The position numbers and the translations under genes are program-made. Positions 3,935 to 12,165 of a DNA stretch of 64,000 bases are shown here, one piece after another; positions within the stretch are counted from its first letter, which is position 1; each line of letters starts with the position of its first letter. Under the pieces are notes generated by a model. It was not told the DNA's origin and did no database searches. It worked only from the letters and a program-made list of their open reading frames with translations. Origin of the DNA: Escherichia coli (GTDB taxonomy: Bacteria; Pseudomonadota; Gammaproteobacteria; Enterobacterales; Enterobacteriaceae); NCBI RefSeq assembly GCF_003334355.1, contig NZ_QOWP01000015.1; one strand, 5' to 3'.

Positions 3935-4555
3935 TCACCGCGAAATAATCAAATGAATGCCAAATCCGGCAAATAACGCCCCGGCAAAACCATCAATCCA
4001 CTTCGCCAGACGTTGATAACCACGGCGCATTTGCGGCAGGGCAAACAGGCTGGCAACGACGGTAAACCACGCCAGTGTTTCGACAATGATCAGCGCAAAA
4101 ATGCCCCAGCGCGCGGTAGTGCCAACGTTATCACCGACAAACAATGAGAACACCGAGCCAAAGTAGATAATCGCTTTCGGATTAGCGAGATTGGTCAGTA
4201 AACCTTTCAGGAAACTGCGCCCGCTTTTCGCCAGCTCAATCTGTGGTGCAGGCGCAGATACAGCCTCTTTTTTCAGTGCACCGCGTAGCATCTGGTAACC
4301 CATCCAGCAGAGATACAGGCCACCGCCAACCATAATCAGCGTATGCAGCCAGGCCATTTTTTCGATAATCAAATGCAGGCCAAGCAACGCAATCCCAGCC
4401 CAAACCATTACACCGCAGGTAATGCCCAGCACGCCCATCATCGCTTCTTTACGGGAACGACTGACAGCGGTCTGAGAGACAAAAAAGAAATCGGGACCGG
4501 GGCTCATAAGCGCCACAATATGCACCATGGCGACGGTGAGAAATAACATCAACAT
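3935..4555 (-). CDS. rhtC: LysE/RhtB-family threonine exporter
   Basis: 206-aa hydrophobic ORF paralogous to rhtB. Confidence 0.85.
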   Translation of the reverse strand: MLMLFLTVAMVHIVALMSPGPDFFFVSQTAVSRSRKEAMMGVLGITCGVMVWAGIALLGLHLIIEKMAWLHTLIMVGGGLYLCWMGYQMLRGALKKEAVSAPAPQIELAKSGRSFLKGLLTNLANPKAIIYFGSVFSLFVGDNVGTTARWGIFALIIVETLAWFTVVASLFALPQMRRGYQRLAKWIDGFAGALFAGFGIHLIISR

Positions 4556-7614: not shown

Positions 7615-8082
7615 ATGTCTGCCGTACTGACCGCTGAACAAGCCCTGAAATTAGTGGGTGAGATGTTTGTTTATCACATGCCATTTAACCGCGCATTGGG
7701 GATGGAACTGGAGCGTTACGAAAAAGAGTTCGCACAGCTGGCCTTTAAAAATCAGCCGATGATGGTGGGTAACTGGGCGCAAAGCATTTTGCACGGCGGG
7801 GTCATTGCGTCGGCGCTGGATGTCGCCGCAGGTCTGGTGTGCGTGGGAAGTACCTTAACCCGCCACGAAACCATCAGTGAAGATGAACTACGCCAGCGGC
7901 TATCGCGGATGGGGACCATTGATCTTCGCGTTGATTATCTGCGCCCAGGCAGGGGCGAGCGTTTTACTGCTACCAGTAGCCTGTTGCGTGCAGGCAATAA
8001 AGTCGCCGTCGCCCGCGTTGAATTACACAATGAAGAACAGCTTTATATTGCCAGTGCCACCGCCACCTATATGGTAGGTTGA
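7615..8082 (+). CDS. yigI: hotdog-fold (PaaI-type) thioesterase YigI
   Basis: ORF trimmed to internal ATG giving 155 aa; synteny. Confidence 0.75.
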
Positions 8083-8133
8083 AGACATAAAAGCAGGTAA
8101 ACTGCTGTTACCAATTAAAAATGAGTATTCCCG

Positions 8134-9024
8134 ATGGATGCAAAACAAACGCGGCAGGGCGTATTACTCGCTCTTGCCGCTTATTTTATTTGGGGTATAG
8201 CGCCAGCGTACTTCAAGTTGATTTACTACGTGCCCGCCGATGAAATCCTGACGCATCGCGTGATCTGGTCGTTTTTCTTTATGGTGGTGCTGATGAGCAT
8301 TTGCCGCCAGTGGTCCTATTTAAAAACGCTGATTCAGACGCCACAGAAAATTTTTATGCTGGCAGTCTCTGCCGTGCTGATTGGTGGCAACTGGCTACTG
8401 TTTATCTGGGCGGTGAACAATCACCATATGCTGGAAGCGAGCCTTGGTTACTTTATTAACCCGCTGGTGAACATTGTGCTGGGGATGATTTTCCTCGGCG
8501 AGCGATTCCGCCGGATGCAATGGCTGGCGGTGATTCTGGCGATATGTGGCGTGTTAGTCCAGCTGTGGACTTTTGGTTCGCTACCTATTATCGCGCTGGG
8601 ACTGGCATTTAGTTTTGCCTTCTACGGTCTGGTACGCAAGAAGATTGCCGTTGAAGCGCAAACCGGCATGTTAATTGAAACCATGTGGCTGCTGCCCGTG
8701 GCGGCAATTTACCTGTTTGCTATTGCCGACAGCTCAACCAGCCATATGGGGCAAAACCCGATTTCGCTGAATTTACTGCTGATCACCGCCGGTATTGTCA
8801 CTACCGTACCGCTGTTGTGTTTTACTGCGGCTGCGACACGCCTGCGTCTCTCAACGTTAGGCTTTTTTCAGTACATTGGCCCGACGCTGATGTTCCTGCT
8901 GGCTGTGACGTTTTATGGTGAAAAACCGGGTGCCGATAAGATGGTGACCTTCGCCTTTATTTGGGTGGCGCTGGCAATTTTTGTGATGGATGCGATTTAT
9001 ACGCAGCGTAGAACGTCCAAATAA
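8134..9024 (+). CDS. rarD: EamA-family transporter RarD
   Basis: 296-aa polytopic membrane ORF; synteny. Confidence 0.85.
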   Translation: MDAKQTRQGVLLALAAYFIWGIAPAYFKLIYYVPADEILTHRVIWSFFFMVVLMSICRQWSYLKTLIQTPQKIFMLAVSAVLIGGNWLLFIWAVNNHHMLEASLGYFINPLVNIVLGMIFLGERFRRMQWLAVILAICGVLVQLWTFGSLPIIALGLAFSFAFYGLVRKKIAVEAQTGMLIETMWLLPVAAIYLFAIADSSTSHMGQNPISLNLLLITAGIVTTVPLLCFTAAATRLRLSTLGFFQYIGPTLMFLLAVTFYGEKPGADKMVTFAFIWVALAIFVMDAIYTQRRTSK

Positions 9025-9058
9025 AAAATAAATATATTCTGAAAAAATATGCCGACTC

Positions 9059-9499
9059 TTGCATGAGAGTGGGCATATTGCCATGCTGACCGGAGACTCA
9101 TACAAGGATGTAAAATTTATGTTACGTATATTTATCCCAACATCTAACGGTAAGATTTCCAGACGTCGTTATATATTTTCATTTATTTTAATAAATTTCA
9201 TTTTTGCCTTTCTTATTATCTTTTTTAACGATGGAGAAGCAGGCTTTCTTGTTATAGTCTCTACCATCGTACTCCATTATCTCGTCATCAACATGAATTG
9301 CCAGCGACTCCGTGATAGTGGTTTCATCTATATAAAAACTTATGTTTTTGGTACATTAGCAGTATATATCATCTCTATCATCACAATGATAGCCGAAGAT
9401 TTTGCCTGTTCAGGCAATGGTTCGATGATTTTTTTGATTTGTTATTTTTCCACTTTCAGTATGCTAATGCTTGCACCTACTGATTCATCAAAACAATAG
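9059..9499 (+). CDS. yigG: small inner-membrane protein of unknown function (YigG); start uncertain (9059 or internal ATG)
   Basis: AT-rich ORF encoding a very hydrophobic protein; several in-frame ATGs near 5' end. Confidence 0.6.
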
Positions 9500-9512
9500 T
9501 TATGGAGTATTT

Positions 9513-9893
9513 ATGAGTAAGGAATATATGAACGATGGTTCATTAAGTGAAAAATGGAAATACCGATTTAATTTTTATGATCAACATGGTTTTCCTGGAT
9601 TCTGGGGGGCAACACCAGAATATAAAGCAGCATTTAAAGCATTAAAAGTAAGACAACGCTTAACTATTCAAATGAATTTCATTGCTTTCTTCTGCTCCTG
9701 GATATATTTATTTGTCCTTGGGTTATGGAAAAAAGCAATTATAGTTCTATTACTTGGTATTCTATCTCTATTTGTTGGTGCACTAATTGGCGTTAACATT
9801 CTGGGAATTGCCGTAGCAGCCTATGTTGCTGTTAACACGAACAAATGGTTCTATGAGAAAGAGGTAAAAGGGTTAAATACCTGGAGCCTTTGA
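9513..9893 (+). CDS. yigF: small membrane protein, DUF2628 family (YigF)
   Basis: 126 aa from ATG 9513 preceded by SD-like tggag; two predicted TM helices. Confidence 0.65.
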   Translation: MSKEYMNDGSLSEKWKYRFNFYDQHGFPGFWGATPEYKAAFKALKVRQRLTIQMNFIAFFCSWIYLFVLGLWKKAIIVLLLGILSLFVGALIGVNILGIAVAAYVAVNTNKWFYEKEVKGLNTWSL

Positions 9894-9899
9894 ATAACA

Positions 9900-9937
9900 G
9901 GTGGCTTAGCCAGACTAAGCCACCGCTCTCGTTTTTT
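9900..9937 (+). terminator. rho-independent terminator after yigF (also faces corA 3' end)
   Basis: 10-bp perfect stem ggtggcttag/ctaagccacc followed by T-run gttttttac. Confidence 0.6.
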
Positions 9938-10886
9938 ACAACCAGTTCTTCCGCTTAAAGTACAGATACGGTGCCAGGCCCGCGAGGATCATAAAGATAA
10001 TCGCGCCTGGGTAGCCGAAACTCCACTTCAGTTCTGGCATAAACTCAAAGTTCATCCCGTAGCTGGAGGCAACCAGCGTTGGCGGCAGGAACACGACGGA
10101 TACCACCGAGAAAATTTTGATGATGCGGTTCTGCTCGATGTTGATAAAACCCATTGCCGCCTGCATCAGGAAGTTCACCTTCTGGAACAGGGATTCGTTA
10201 TGCGGCAGCAGGGATTCGATATCTCGCAGGATTTCACGCGCCTGCTCCAGTTGCCCACCCGGTAAACGCGCTTTACGCACCAGGAAGTTGAGCGCACGCT
10301 GGGTATCCATCAGACACAGGCGCACTTTCCAGCCGATATCTTCCAGTTCCGCCAGAGTGGAGAGCGCCTCGTCGTACTCATCGCCCTGATGCCCTTCCAT
10401 AATCACCCGGCTCAACTGCTCCAGGTCGCTATAGATATTTTCAATTTCATCTGCCAACTGTTCGATTTTGGTTTCGAACAGATCCAGCAGCAGCTCGTAG
10501 GCGTTACCGTCCACCATCGACTGGCTACGGGCACGCATACGATACAGACGAAAAGCGGGCAGTTCACGCTCACGCAGAGTAAACAGACGACCATCACGGA
10601 TGGTAAATGCCACAGTGGAGTTACCGGCGTGATCTTCCGCATCTTCAAAGAAGAAGAAGGAGTGAATATGCAGGCCGTCGTCGTCTTCAAAGAAACGTGC
10701 CGATGCTTCGATGTCTTCCAGTTCCGGGCGGGTTGCCAGGCTCTGACCAAGTTCAGATTGTACGCGCAGTCGCTCGTCGTCGTCCGGTTCGACAAGATCA
10801 ATCCATACTGCATTTACAAGGGGTTGTGACTCTTCGACTTCCAGCCGGGTCAGTCGGTTATTTTCCAGTTGAAATGCGCTCAGCAT
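9936..10886 (-). CDS. corA: Mg2+/Co2+/Ni2+ transporter CorA
   Basis: 316 aa from [10 protein letters not shown]; C-terminal YGMNF (GMN) motif and two TM helices. Confidence 0.9.
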
Positions 10887-11255
10887 GACCGGGACTCCCA
10901 ATGCTTAAAATATCGGACAGTTCGGTGGGCACACAGAAACAAATTGGGTTTCAGACCATTAAACAGCCTGACTCAGCGCGACGGGAAAAATTGAGGTCGC
11001 TGACAACCGCTAAGGCTATCAGCAAAAAGGGATAGCCTTAGGAGTTGATCCTGGATGACAGGATAGTGAGCCAGTATCTACTGGGTGTGTCCAAGGCGAA
11101 TGTCCTCTTAGAGTGATCGTGCGCGCATGTTACGCCAGCAAAATTTTGCCGTCAACACGCAACAGAACACCACAGAACAATAGTTGAACTTCGCGCTTTT
11201 TGGTACTCGTCAAGGTCGCTAACAGGATAAAAAAATCCCACATCCAGGACCTATA

Positions 11256-12020
11256 ATGGCGCATCGGCTACTCATTGGTAAAGGAATGATCACCTTGAAT
11301 CTCAAACGGATTTTTCTCGCCCTCACCTTACTTCCCTTGTTTGCTGTTGCCGCTGATGATTGCGCACTCTCAGATCCGACGCTGACCGTACAGGCGTATA
11401 CCGTTAATCCTCAAACAGAGCGGGTGAAAATGTACTGGCAAAAAGCCAATGGCGAAGCGTGGGGAACGTTACATGCTCTGCTGGCGGATATGAATAGTCA
11501 GGGTCAGGTGCAGATGGCGATGAACGGCGGCATCTATGATGAAAGCTATGCGCCGCTCGGTTTGTACATCGAAAACGGTCAGCAGAAGGTGGCGTTAAAT
11601 CTCGCTTCAGGTGAAGGGAATTTCTTTATCCGTCCTGGCGGCGTGTTTTATGTCGCGGGAGATAAAGTCGGCATCGTTCGTCTGGATGCCTTCAAAACCA
11701 GTAAAGAGATTCAGTTTGCGGTGCAGTCAGGGCCAATGTTGATGGAAAACGGTGTAATTAATCCGCGTATTCATCCCAACGTCGCCTCACGTAAAATTCG
11801 TAACGGTGTTGGGATTAATAAACATGGGAATGCCGTGTTTTTGTTGAGCCAGCAGGCGACAAATTTTTATGATTTTGCCTGTTATGCCAAAGCGAAACTG
11901 AACGTTGAGCAGCTGCTTTATCTTGATGGCACGATTTCACATATGTATATGAAAGGCGGGGCAATCCCGTGGCAACGCTATCCTTTTGTCACCATGATTT
12001 CCGTCGAGCGGAAAGGTTAG
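11256..12020 (+). CDS. yigE: DUF2233-family secreted protein YigE
   Basis: 254-aa ORF with N-terminal hydrophobic signal-like segment; synteny. Confidence 0.7.
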   Translation: MAHRLLIGKGMITLNLKRIFLALTLLPLFAVAADDCALSDPTLTVQAYTVNPQTERVKMYWQKANGEAWGTLHALLADMNSQGQVQMAMNGGIYDESYAPLGLYIENGQQKVALNLASGEGNFFIRPGGVFYVAGDKVGIVRLDAFKTSKEIQFAVQSGPMLMENGVINPRIHPNVASRKIRNGVGINKHGNAVFLLSQQATNFYDFACYAKAKLNVEQLLYLDGTISHMYMKGGAIPWQRYPFVTMISVERKG

Positions 12021-12056
12021 AATGATAGTTTTGTGTCAGATACTAAATATGGTGCT

Positions 12057-12093
12057 GATGCCGGATGCGACGTAAACGCCTTATCCGGCCTAC
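12057..12093. repeat. REP element
   Basis: tgatgccggatgcgacgtaaacgccttatccggcctac, canonical REP, between convergent yigE and uvrD. Confidence 0.8.
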
Positions 12094-12165
12094 ATGACGT
12101 TGCAATTTATTGAATCTGAATGATTTTTAGGCCAAATAAGGTGTACAGCACCGCATCCCGCAACG

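Follow-up and report, generated by a model that had tools for sequence, protein, structure and literature searches.

The window analysed here is a stretch of 64,000 nucleotides of Escherichia coli DNA, and the locus of interest is the gap in it between the convergent genes rarD and corA. Two small genes lie in this gap, for which the names yigG and yigF, given to them in an earlier note made from the bare sequence, were found to be correct. The features are as follows, in window coordinates.

8134–9024, + strand: rarD, EamA-family transporter, left core flank
9014–9935, no strand: variable cassette region in its haplotype A (K-12-type) form, i.e. the rarD|corA slot including the AT-rich yigG-yigF, delimited by haplotype comparison and GC profile
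9046–9078, + strand: hairpin in the rarD-yigG spacer (AUAUGCC...GGGCAUAU, inner stem)
9105–9108, + strand: AGGA, Shine-Dalgarno sequence of yigG, its own ribosome site
9119–9499, + strand: yigG, 126 aa, predicted four-helix inner-membrane protein, divergent DUF805-like, NCBIfam PRK11371
9270–9419, + strand: intragenic promoter fragment "yigG 1.2" with its AT-tract at 9335–9348, located by placing the primer and synthetic sequences of PMC7229825 in the window
9504–9507, + strand: GGAG, Shine-Dalgarno sequence of yigF, its own ribosome site
9513–9893, + strand: yigF, 126 aa, DUF2628 protein, predicted to be in the inner membrane
9900–9924, no strand: GC-rich hairpin with a 10–11 bp stem, candidate bidirectional terminator between the convergent yigF and corA stops
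9936–10886, − strand: corA, Mg2+/Co2+ channel, right core flank

The GC content of positions 9059–9893 is 0.344, compared with a mean of 0.523 (sd 0.036) for 835-bp windows over the 64 kb (z = −4.96). This is the lowest-GC stretch of that length in the whole window, with 0.25% of windows equally low, and GC falls below 0.40 nowhere else in the 64 kb. The third codon positions follow the same trend: GC3 is 0.31 in yigG (z = −5.3) and 0.29 in yigF (z = −5.8), the 47 reference ORFs having 0.59 ± 0.05; GC1 and GC2 of both genes are likewise low, and a codon index referenced to the window gives z-scores of −3.4 (yigG) and −3.7 (yigF). Composition and codon usage are normal in rarD and corA. The AT-rich contrast of the gap described in the earlier note, which could have been undone by GC and codon usage resembling those of the neighbours, is clearly present by both measures, and the AT run that it quoted was found at 9176–9230. 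The AT content lies well above the genome background across several hundred base pairs, as is characteristic of promoter islands and xenogeneic DNA. By itself, AT-richness does not tell whether the DNA is foreign or has drifted towards AT in a locus that is silenced and under weak constraint.

YigG scores 255.6 bits with its NCBIfam equivalog model PRK11371 (curated cut-off 217). The first 12 positions of this model correspond to an older upstream start, ATG 9083. The match to the Pfam DUF805 model (PF05656) is below significance (E = 0.023, 15.6 bits), and a YigG profile searched against 1.84 billion representatives gave 23 matches, which form a very narrow clade and include no canonical DUF805 protein. 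The AF2 model (pLDDT 88.4) has helices at residues 15–38, 42–67, 72–92 and 100–118, and beyond the protein's own clade nearly all of its Foldseek matches are DUF805 proteins, with weak E-values (0.1–1) and TM-scores of 0.5–0.67. In addition to the four-helix fold, YigG has the DUF805 loop motif R-L-H/R-D-x-G, with R63, R65, S67 and G68 invariant. Judging by the predicted structure, YigG is a divergent DUF805-like four-helix protein; no relative with a solved structure was found by sequence. YigF matches the Pfam DUF2628 model (PF10947) with E = 5.2e-10, residues 17–117 aligning with positions 9–91 of 93, and is named DUF2628 domain-containing protein in RefSeq. In the alignment columns, an N-terminal segment carrying a conserved KW..RF.FF, which is probably cytoplasmic, is followed by a hydrophobic hairpin region with an invariant LGLWKK. 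The AF2 model of YigF (pLDDT 86.5) has 132 Foldseek matches with E ≤ 0.001 and TM-scores of 0.7–0.99; nearly all of the best 50 of these 132 are DUF2628, the rest being unnamed membrane proteins or fragments, and no solved structure was related to it by sequence or fold. YigF is a DUF2628 protein. The structure predictions agree with the proposal that both products are multi-helix membrane proteins. To our knowledge, no function is known for either DUF805 or DUF2628, and the literature on the two families yielded no functional lead.

With the RefSeq starts, which PRK11371 matches, the two genes are separated by 13 nt; the slight overlap suggested earlier arises only when the longest ORFs with a TTG start (9059–9499 and 9471–9893) are taken. 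This spacing, together with the co-occurrence of the genes, suggests an operon and a possible interaction between YigG and YigF. As both proteins have exactly 126 codons, tandem paralogy was considered, and was ruled out by an hhalign probability of 0.2%. The pairwise dN/dS is 0.15–0.27 for yigG and 0.02–0.16 for yigF (0.02–0.04 within the K-12-type allele), and since both are thus under purifying selection (0.02–0.27 overall) they are real genes. YigG has a dN about 30 times that of the flanks at equal dS.

There is a hairpin on either side of the pair. Positions 9025–9118 fold with −23.7 kcal/mol (z = −3.6), and the 9046–9078 hairpin could either mark where the rarD transcript ends or serve as a leader structure of yigG. 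The 9900–9924 hairpin, located between the stops of yigF (9893) and corA (9936), has a folding energy of −17.5 kcal/mol on the + strand and −21 on the − strand (z about −3.7). It had been described as a strong terminator shared with corA, and a pattern scan indeed scores it as terminator-like on both strands; a stem with an adjoining U-run is found on the − strand (corA), and it is less canonical for yigF, as the UUUUUU run of the + strand begins 7 nt past the stem. This hairpin travels with the yigGF cassette and not with corA: in BL21 it lies 3' of yigF and ahead of corA', a duplicate of the corA 3' end, and another hairpin is found downstream of the true corA. Rfam gave only sub-threshold chance matches around the cassette, and no known RNA element.

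New in this analysis is that the rarD|corA gap serves E. coli as a cassette slot, with occupants that are polymorphic. Among 5,426 complete E. coli genomes, yigGF was found at ≥80% coverage in 2,962 (about 55%), and 566 of these carry a deeply divergent allele that is merely 80–90% identical (about 10% of all genomes). A DUF3289/DUF943 cassette, a colicin-M-like effector/immunity pair which either replaces yigGF or is added to it together with a duplicate of the corA 3' end, is present in 2,627 genomes, and both cassettes in 301. An O157-type filler occupies the slot in 1,433, and O157-type strains have a third, degenerate yigG-like copy. The last 3–4 codons of rarD (from about 9014) vary among the haplotypes; homology to the D and "empty" haplotypes ends 24 nt into the compared stretch, at 9013, and the first 84–110 nt past rarD are common to haplotypes A, B and C. 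On the other side, it is the last ~147 bp of corA that haplotypes B and D carry in duplicate as corA'. A yigG remnant is left in haplotype C and a degenerate, start-less yigG-like frame in haplotype D. Deletion derivatives of the slot were seen, one of them with a yigG remnant. The sole candidate for a virgin empty slot, strain 2022H048, was rejected as it arose from the O157-type haplotype by deletion and is not ancestral. As to whether K-12 arose from a two-cassette haplotype by deletion, the comparison of corA' with corA has one informative site only.

At least three deep YigG lineages occur at this one chromosomal position within E. coli. Between allele E and the K-12 allele the dS is 0.7–1.2, compared with 0.05–0.16 for the flanks. 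The K-12 YigF is 83% identical to that of Superficieibacter and 70% to that of allele E, and the reverse is observed for the K-12 YigG (44% and 76%, respectively); such a mosaic of identities requires exchange between lineages. No integrase, transposase, IS element, tRNA/att site or flanking direct repeat was found at the cassette, the junctions being the last rarD codons and the corA stop, and exchange apparently takes place by homologous recombination in the core flanks.

In a scan of 100,044 species genomes, yigGF was found in about nine species representatives only, all of them Enterobacteriaceae. The slot also contains the pair in Superficieibacter, Atlantibacter, Kosakonia and E. whittamii. 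In Salmonella the pair adjoins corA, with a YigG about 58% identical to that of E. coli, and it has been reported absent from serovar Enteritidis (PMC3579871). Across these genera the pair changes much more rapidly than the genes flanking it. At the slot of E. whittamii there is an orphan immunity gene. In Atlantibacter, corA' and rarD' fragments lie between the two cassettes, which are therefore alternative occupants in tandem and not one functional unit. Relatives of YigF occur alone, with no conserved neighbour, in Pseudomonas, Pantoea, Budvicia and Nocardia, and neighbour clustering of 73 loci gave no constant partner outside Enterobacteriaceae apart from spurious high-GC ORFs.

The pair was put forward in the earlier note as an old horizontally acquired module, a proposal that universal conservation with the same flanks in Enterobacterales would have refuted. 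Conservation is not universal even within E. coli, about 45% of which are without the pair, and published calls of horizontal transfer and the patchy distribution are in line with acquisition. As a whole, the proposal is too simple, considering that slot and orientation are shared by five genera or more (Escherichia, Salmonella, Superficieibacter, Atlantibacter and Kosakonia), that the dS between E. coli and E. whittamii is 0.39–0.45 for the pair, close to the 0.26–0.39 of the flanks, and that E. coli has, besides this allele, two further deep allelic lineages and an unrelated toxin/immunity cassette. The first two of these observations, along with a shared gene order, allow a reading in which the AT-richness is no mark of foreignness, the pair being an old vertical resident that was silenced and drifted towards AT, and that was lost from the lineages now without it. 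The yigG traces in haplotypes C and D, by which each E. coli haplotype examined derives from a yigG-bearing slot, and the lack of mobility genes and repeats would fit such a history. It is a possible one, but we find it doubtful, given the distance of allele E from the K-12 allele relative to the flanks and the inter-lineage exchange needed for the YigG/YigF mosaic. Furthermore, the Kosakonia copies have a GC3 of 0.54–0.59, so that low GC is no obligatory end state, and GC1 and GC2 are low as well. A long-standing cassette slot whose occupants are exchanged by recombination is a better description than an old acquired module.

That this locus is AT-rich, encodes two small membrane proteins and was probably acquired has been known in the E. 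coli literature for years. The locus was called horizontally transferred by Nakamura 2004 and Lawrence-Ochman 1998 (cited in PMC3661553), and it appears under the name "yigF/yigG" as a 663-bp promoter island to which H-NS binds in every ChIP study (PMC3661553 Table 1; Shavkunov/Ozoline 2013). The H-NS-repressed promoter within yigG has been dissected (PMC7229825; Singh/Warman/Grainger), and the locus served as an example of a silencing extended protein occupancy domain, or EPOD (PMC8282354; Freddolino 2021). Other mentions of yigG in the literature are screens or citations, apart from one study in which a Salmonella ΔyigG strain showed an attachment and chlorine phenotype with partial complementation (PMC3579871).

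Taking these data together, we consider it probable that yigG-yigF is a bicistronic unit encoding two unrelated inner-membrane proteins, carried on an H-NS-silenced AT-rich cassette in a swap-prone slot. The 0.9-kb cassette fills the gap between the two convergent core genes, and slot occupants are swapped, stacked or deleted, apparently through recombination in the conserved flanks. According to the literature, H-NS coats the AT-rich DNA to give both the promoter island and the extended protein occupancy domain, and because of this coating the operon is silent in laboratory K-12 save for spurious intragenic initiation. The proteins would then act in the inner membrane under a non-laboratory condition which relieves the silencing. 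YigF, found alone in many other bacteria and strongly constrained, may be the conserved working part, and YigG a rapidly evolving partner confined to Enterobacteriaceae. As suggested by the Salmonella deletion phenotype, the likeliest role is an accessory one at the envelope or surface rather than ion transport with corA. Any such role is dispensable, since about 45% of E. coli are without the pair and yigG is a pseudogene in BL21(DE3).

A relevance of the corA neighbourhood to function had also been raised. A functional link between yigGF and corA, such as a part in Mg2+/Co2+ homeostasis or in the response to ion stress, would have only adjacency and the shared hairpin in its favour, and the genomic context speaks against it: yigGF converge on corA and are transcribed separately, the same intact corA is present in strains that have yigGF, in those that lack it and in those with other cassettes, genes for YigF homologues elsewhere do not adjoin corA, and the hairpin is part of the cassette. 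On these grounds the functional link was rejected, and we regard it as scarcely credible. It is also highly improbable that the reading frames are artefacts or decaying relics without function in AT-rich junk DNA. The silencing of the K-12 locus reported in the literature, the BL21 pseudogene, the numerous truncated database entries and the start-less frame of haplotype D would agree with decay, but intact 126-codon frames with Shine-Dalgarno sequences are retained across genera, dN/dS is well under 1 (above all for yigF), the AF2 models are confident and YigF belongs to a broad conserved family.

Immunity to pore-forming colicins is usually provided by small polytopic inner-membrane proteins. 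YigG and YigF are of this type, and the pair could be a conflict cassette (toxin immunity, phage exclusion or toxin/antidote) in a conflict-gene hotspot, with YigG as the hypervariable specificity or immunity part under diversifying selection, acting with YigF against a membrane-acting toxin or phage. The slot is common to a colicin-M-like T6SS effector/immunity pair, with which yigGF is stacked in 301 genomes, and the deep YigG lineages at one position in one species and the elevated dN of YigG at flank-like dS would be expected of such a part. We nevertheless hold this to be unlikely. Neither PADLOC nor PHROGs gave any match to a defence or phage family for yigG or yigF, DUF2628 and DUF805 are not in the supplements of a T6SS effector-immunity survey, and no pairwise dN/dS reaches 1. 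In many genera the homologues of YigF are encoded by single-copy genes that stand alone in a stable context, the Atlantibacter fragments indicate alternative occupants, and the allele relationships of YigG and YigF are mosaic instead of co-varying. If true, it would give both DUF families their first function.

Returning to the silenced cassette in an exchange-prone slot, the population picture of a sub-kilobase gap between core genes with interchangeable two-gene cassettes and no mobility machinery may be useful, and slots of this kind could be a cheap hunting ground for accessory functions in the envelope or in conflict. In YigF and YigG the large DUF2628 and DUF805 families have tractable members, and the clear purifying selection on a yigF that is silent in the laboratory points to an inducing condition yet to be explored.

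Compared with known systems, yigGF resembles classical genomic islands in being silenced by H-NS, atypical in GC and codon usage and variably present among strains, but differs from them in that it has no integrase, IS element or tRNA target, is not flanked by direct repeats and is shorter than 1 kb. The orphan T6SS effector-immunity cassettes (DUF3289 + DUF943; Geller et al. 2024) occupy the same slot, and these and displaced polymorphic-toxin 3' modules are similar to yigGF in two-gene make-up, deep alleles and corA' junctions; yigG and yigF differ in having no toxin or known immunity domain and no defence-library match, in their dN/dS below 1, and in that YigF is widespread as a stand-alone gene. 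The locus is itself one of the H-NS-silenced promoter islands and EPODs of K-12, the studies of which cover the DNA only and not the slot polymorphism or the protein families. With respect to DUF805 (PF05656; YhaH/YhaI in E. coli), YigG retains the N-terminal G-[KR]-I-S-R..Y and the loop R-L-R-D-S-G but is under Pfam significance and forms a narrow, fast-evolving clade, whereas YigF agrees with DUF2628 (PF10947) in both sequence and predicted fold. A DUF805-like and a DUF2628 gene as a fixed pair are found in this Enterobacteriaceae slot alone.

The stretch at 9059-9893, described in the earlier note as lower in GC than its surroundings, is indeed the only one of the 64 kb with GC below 0.40: its GC content is 0.344, against a mean of 0.523 (sd 0.036) over all 835-bp windows of the 64 kb (z = -4.96). 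The AT run quoted in that note sits at 9176-9230. Codon usage deviates as well, with GC3 values of 0.31 for yigG and 0.29 for yigF versus 0.59±0.05 for 47 reference ORFs, and a window-referenced codon index that is 3.4-3.7 sd low for both genes, while the flanking rarD and corA are typical. A megablast search of 5,426 complete E. coli genomes found E. coli chromosomes 100% identical to region 8950-9960, annotated at the matching sites with rarD, yigG ("protein YigG"), yigF ("DUF2628 domain-containing protein") and corA.

Layout of the rarD-corA interval (window coordinates)
Within 7800-11400, ahead of rarD: yigI (gene order read from the window)
8134-9024, + strand: rarD, left flank
9119-9499, + strand: yigG, 381 bp, RefSeq-length, AGGA at 9105-9108
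9513-9893, + strand: yigF, 381 bp, RefSeq-length, GGAG at 9504-9507
9936-10886, - strand: corA, right flank

With RefSeq-length genes, yigG and yigF do not overlap but lie 13 nt apart; the overlap reported earlier came from taking the longest TTG-started ORFs (9059-9499 and 9471-9893). Positions 13-138 of the NCBIfam model PRK11371 cover the 126-aa YigG; the first 12 positions of the model come from an older yigG start further upstream. The rarD-yigG spacer contains a stable nested hairpin (9046-9078, + strand; -23.7 kcal/mol and z -3.6 for 9025-9118), which lacks a U-run, is common to haplotypes A, B and C of the interval (listed below) and overlaps the TTG previously read as the yigG start. 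As for the strong terminator said to be shared with the corA 3' end, a hairpin at 9900-9924 (folding energies of -17.5 kcal/mol for the + strand and -21 kcal/mol for the - strand, with z about -3.7) is terminator-like on both strands in a pattern scan, but its U-run on the + strand begins 7 nt past the stem, so that on the yigF side it is a less canonical terminator than "strong" would imply. An 18-codon leader ORF of the YsgD/CorL family, ysgD, lies upstream of corA (11038-11094, - strand) and is identical to the RefSeq-annotated copy.

The pair is not universal in E. coli: at least 80% of 8950-9960 is covered in only 2,962 of the 5,426 genomes, and 566 of these 2,962 are only 80-90% identical over the region. 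The rarD-corA gap is a polymorphic slot with several alternative occupants.

Occupants of the slot in E. coli, defined by inspecting representative genomes (corA' is a duplicated 3' fragment of corA)
Haplotype A: rarD, yigG-yigF, corA; this window and K-12
Haplotype B: rarD, yigG-yigF, corA' (last 147 bp), DUF3289-DUF943, corA; BL21(DE3) and strain B1, about 301 genomes
Haplotype C: rarD, DUF3289-DUF943, corA, plus 52 nt left over from yigG codons ~13-30; XDL
Haplotype D: rarD, 99-aa ORF (- strand), corA', DUF3289-DUF943, corA; O157:H7 and JML285, about 1,433 genomes
Haplotype E: divergent yigG-yigF, amino-acid identity 76% and 70%; CRKP-1
Near-empty haplotype: deletion derivative of D; 2022H048 (which also lacks yigE)

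The yigG remnant marks haplotype C as derived from B by deletion. The variable region extends from the last rarD codons (about 9014) to the corA stop; neither repeats, mobility genes nor Rfam elements were found at the cassette flanks. The hairpin at 9900-9924 moves together with yigF: BL21 has it ahead of corA', and a different hairpin follows the true corA of that strain. The DUF3289/DUF943 cassette occurs in 2,627 of the 5,426 genomes, among them BL21 but not K-12, and consists of a colicin-M-like periplasm-acting toxin, found fused to T6SS components, and its immunity protein (PMC11148199). An internal stop interrupts yigG in BL21(DE3), where the gene is annotated as a pseudogene (comparison locus L005, own coordinates 4170-4550); the adjacent yigF is intact and 100% identical to the window copy. 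Haplotype D carries a third, very divergent yigG-like frame directly upstream of corA' (loci L002, 4632-5021, + strand, and L006, 3412-3816), which matches the YigG family with an hhalign probability of 97% (E = 4e-11; identity 25-37%). This frame offers no ATG, GTG or TTG as a start until about codon 38, lacks a yigF partner and is unannotated in RefSeq. For the 99-aa hydrophobic ORF of the O157-type slot (L002, 4119-4418, - strand), searches of Pfam, NCBIfam, PADLOC and PHROGs all gave no match. A second presence/absence polymorphism lies about 2 kb from the slot: a 903-bp "SAM hydrolase/SAM-dependent halogenase family" gene, located downstream of or replacing yigE at six of seven further E. 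coli loci inspected (the seventh, L002, ended earlier), is missing from the window (12021-12100 region, after yigE at 11256-12020), where tblastn finds no match to it anywhere.

Outside E. coli, a pattern scan covering 100,044 species with one genome apiece detected slot-type YigF among Escherichia spp. and in Superficieibacter (YigF 83%, YigG 44-46%), Atlantibacter (63% and 47-48%) and two Kosakonia species (46-48% and about 30-33%). Each time the gene lies between rarD and corA behind a YigG homologue, and the flanks are 84-94% identical. On Salmonella contigs yigF adjoins corA; as Salmonella YigF contains both scan patterns yet is missing from the scan, the Salmonella representative must lack the gene. 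In Atlantibacter subterranea (L013, 5429-5890), yigGF is separated from DUF3289/DUF943 by a 267-nt corA' that matches the complete gene at 95.5% identity and, back to back with it, a 192-nt rarD', a copy of the rarD 3' end (94.8%). The slot flanks have here been duplicated in tandem, an arrangement which shows both cassettes to be alternative occupants of the slot, joined head to tail. In Escherichia whittamii (L010, 5487-5975), yigG-yigF is followed by an orphan DUF943 immunity gene, with neither the DUF3289 toxin nor corA'. A 1,564-bp contig of an "uncultured Alistipes sp." MAG (L007, CASFSC010000152.1) encodes proteins 100% identical to E. coli rarD-yigG-yigF-corA, which almost certainly means that E. 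coli DNA has contaminated a Bacteroidota metagenome bin.

The question of whether the cassette was acquired or has drifted in place has evidence on both sides. Between allele E and the K-12 allele, dS is 0.70 for yigG and 1.19 for yigF, against 0.05-0.16 for the flanks. K-12 YigF resembles its Superficieibacter counterpart (83%) more than that of allele E (70%), while for K-12 YigG the order is reversed, with 76% identity to allele E and 44% to Superficieibacter; these opposite affinities amount to a mosaic. The dS excess and the mosaic favour horizontal exchange; long residence is favoured by the same slot in five genera, by an E. whittamii dS matching the flanks (0.39-0.45 for the pair, 0.26-0.39 for the flanks, compared with E. 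coli) and by yigG remnants in haplotypes "lacking" the pair. Low GC (0.33-0.39) is kept in Escherichia, Superficieibacter and Atlantibacter, but the Kosakonia copies have a GC3 of 0.54-0.59. A silenced locus under weak constraint may also have drifted towards AT, and this remains a serious alternative to foreign origin. We conclude that yigGF has long resided in a slot whose contents are exchanged by recombination. The old acquired module proposed earlier broadly agrees with published views, but the cassette slot is the better picture; an ultimately foreign origin is plausible, though not proven by composition.

Both products are small multi-TM proteins, as anticipated, with membrane-helical AlphaFold2 models. 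That of YigG (pLDDT 88.4) has four helices (15-38, 42-67, 72-92 and 100-118). YigG matches Pfam DUF805 at E = 0.023 only, and a profile built from 13 YigG sequences retrieved 23 proteins at E <= 0.001, many of them fragments, from 1.84 billion cluster representatives. Orthologues sharing the fold occur in Escherichia, Salmonella, Atlantibacter, Intestinirhabdus, Pseudescherichia, Phytobacter, Kosakonia and Mangrovibacter, beyond which the fold neighbours are almost all DUF805, with weak E-values. The invariant loop R63-x-R65-D-S67-G68 resembles the DUF805 hallmark motif, and the charge distribution (positive-inside rule) suggests that the N-terminus and the 2-3 loop are cytoplasmic. YigF matches DUF2628 (E = 5e-10), and its model (pLDDT 86.5) begins with short helices at the N-terminus and continues with long, hydrophobic ones. 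Nearly all of the 50 listed Foldseek AFDB50 matches, from Proteobacteria and Actinobacteria, are annotated as DUF2628, the exceptions being a few unnamed membrane proteins and fragments. Its invariant columns include K14, W15, R18, F19, F21 and L69-G-L-W-K-K74. Distant YigF homologues (35-46%; Pseudomonas, Pantoea, Budvicia, Pragia, Leminorella, Xanthomonadales and Nocardia) stand alone, with neither a conserved neighbour nor YigG. YigG and YigF share no homology (hhalign probability 0.2%); no relative of solved structure was found for either, nor any match in PADLOC or PHROGs.

Nei-Gojobori estimates against six other loci give dN/dS values of 0.15-0.27 for yigG, 0.02-0.16 for yigF (0.02-0.04 inside the K-12-type allele) and 0-0.03 for the flanks within Escherichia. 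This purifying selection shows that both are real genes and makes it very unlikely that they are "junk ORFs". YigG is a fast-evolving yet constrained protein: between E. coli and E. whittamii, at comparable dS, dN is 0.108 for yigG versus 0.003 for rarD and corA. The two genes are probably co-transcribed, given the 13-nt spacer and the lack of a terminator between them. Their products would act in the inner membrane once H-NS silencing is lifted, with YigF as the putative conserved functional core and YigG as a lineage-restricted, fast-evolving partner, and may affect envelope or surface properties. H-NS coating, silencing and spurious intragenic initiation at yigGF are taken from the literature (PMC3661553, PMC7229825, PMC8282354). 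We regard the descriptive model of gene models, families, purifying selection, slot polymorphism and silencing as likely to be right, and an envelope-accessory role specifically as a tentative suggestion. The cassette bears neither mobility nor defence signatures. The most interesting alternative is that yigGF, which shares its slot with a toxin-immunity cassette, is itself a conflict cassette; we consider this improbable. A role linked to the adjoining corA is less probable still, and we give it hardly any weight.

The locus is one of the 78 "promoter islands" of MG1655 ("yigF/yigG", 663 bp), H-NS-bound in all ChIP data sets considered, called horizontally transferred by two independent methods and presented in Figure 1 of that paper (PMC3661553). 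An H-NS-repressed, AT-tract-dependent intragenic promoter within yigG has been dissected in vitro (PMC7229825), on a fragment that we located at 9270-9419, and IPOD-HR places yigF, yigG and rarD in a small extended protein occupancy domain that silences them (PMC8282354). In Salmonella, a ΔyigG mutant attached less well to polystyrene, spinach and tomato and grew less at higher chlorine, and yigG was reported absent from serovar Enteritidis (PMC3579871). A literature search on DUF2628 and DUF805 returned nothing functional. Against this record, the locus itself is already known, and what is added here, the polymorphism of the slot and three deep lineages of YigG, is modest.
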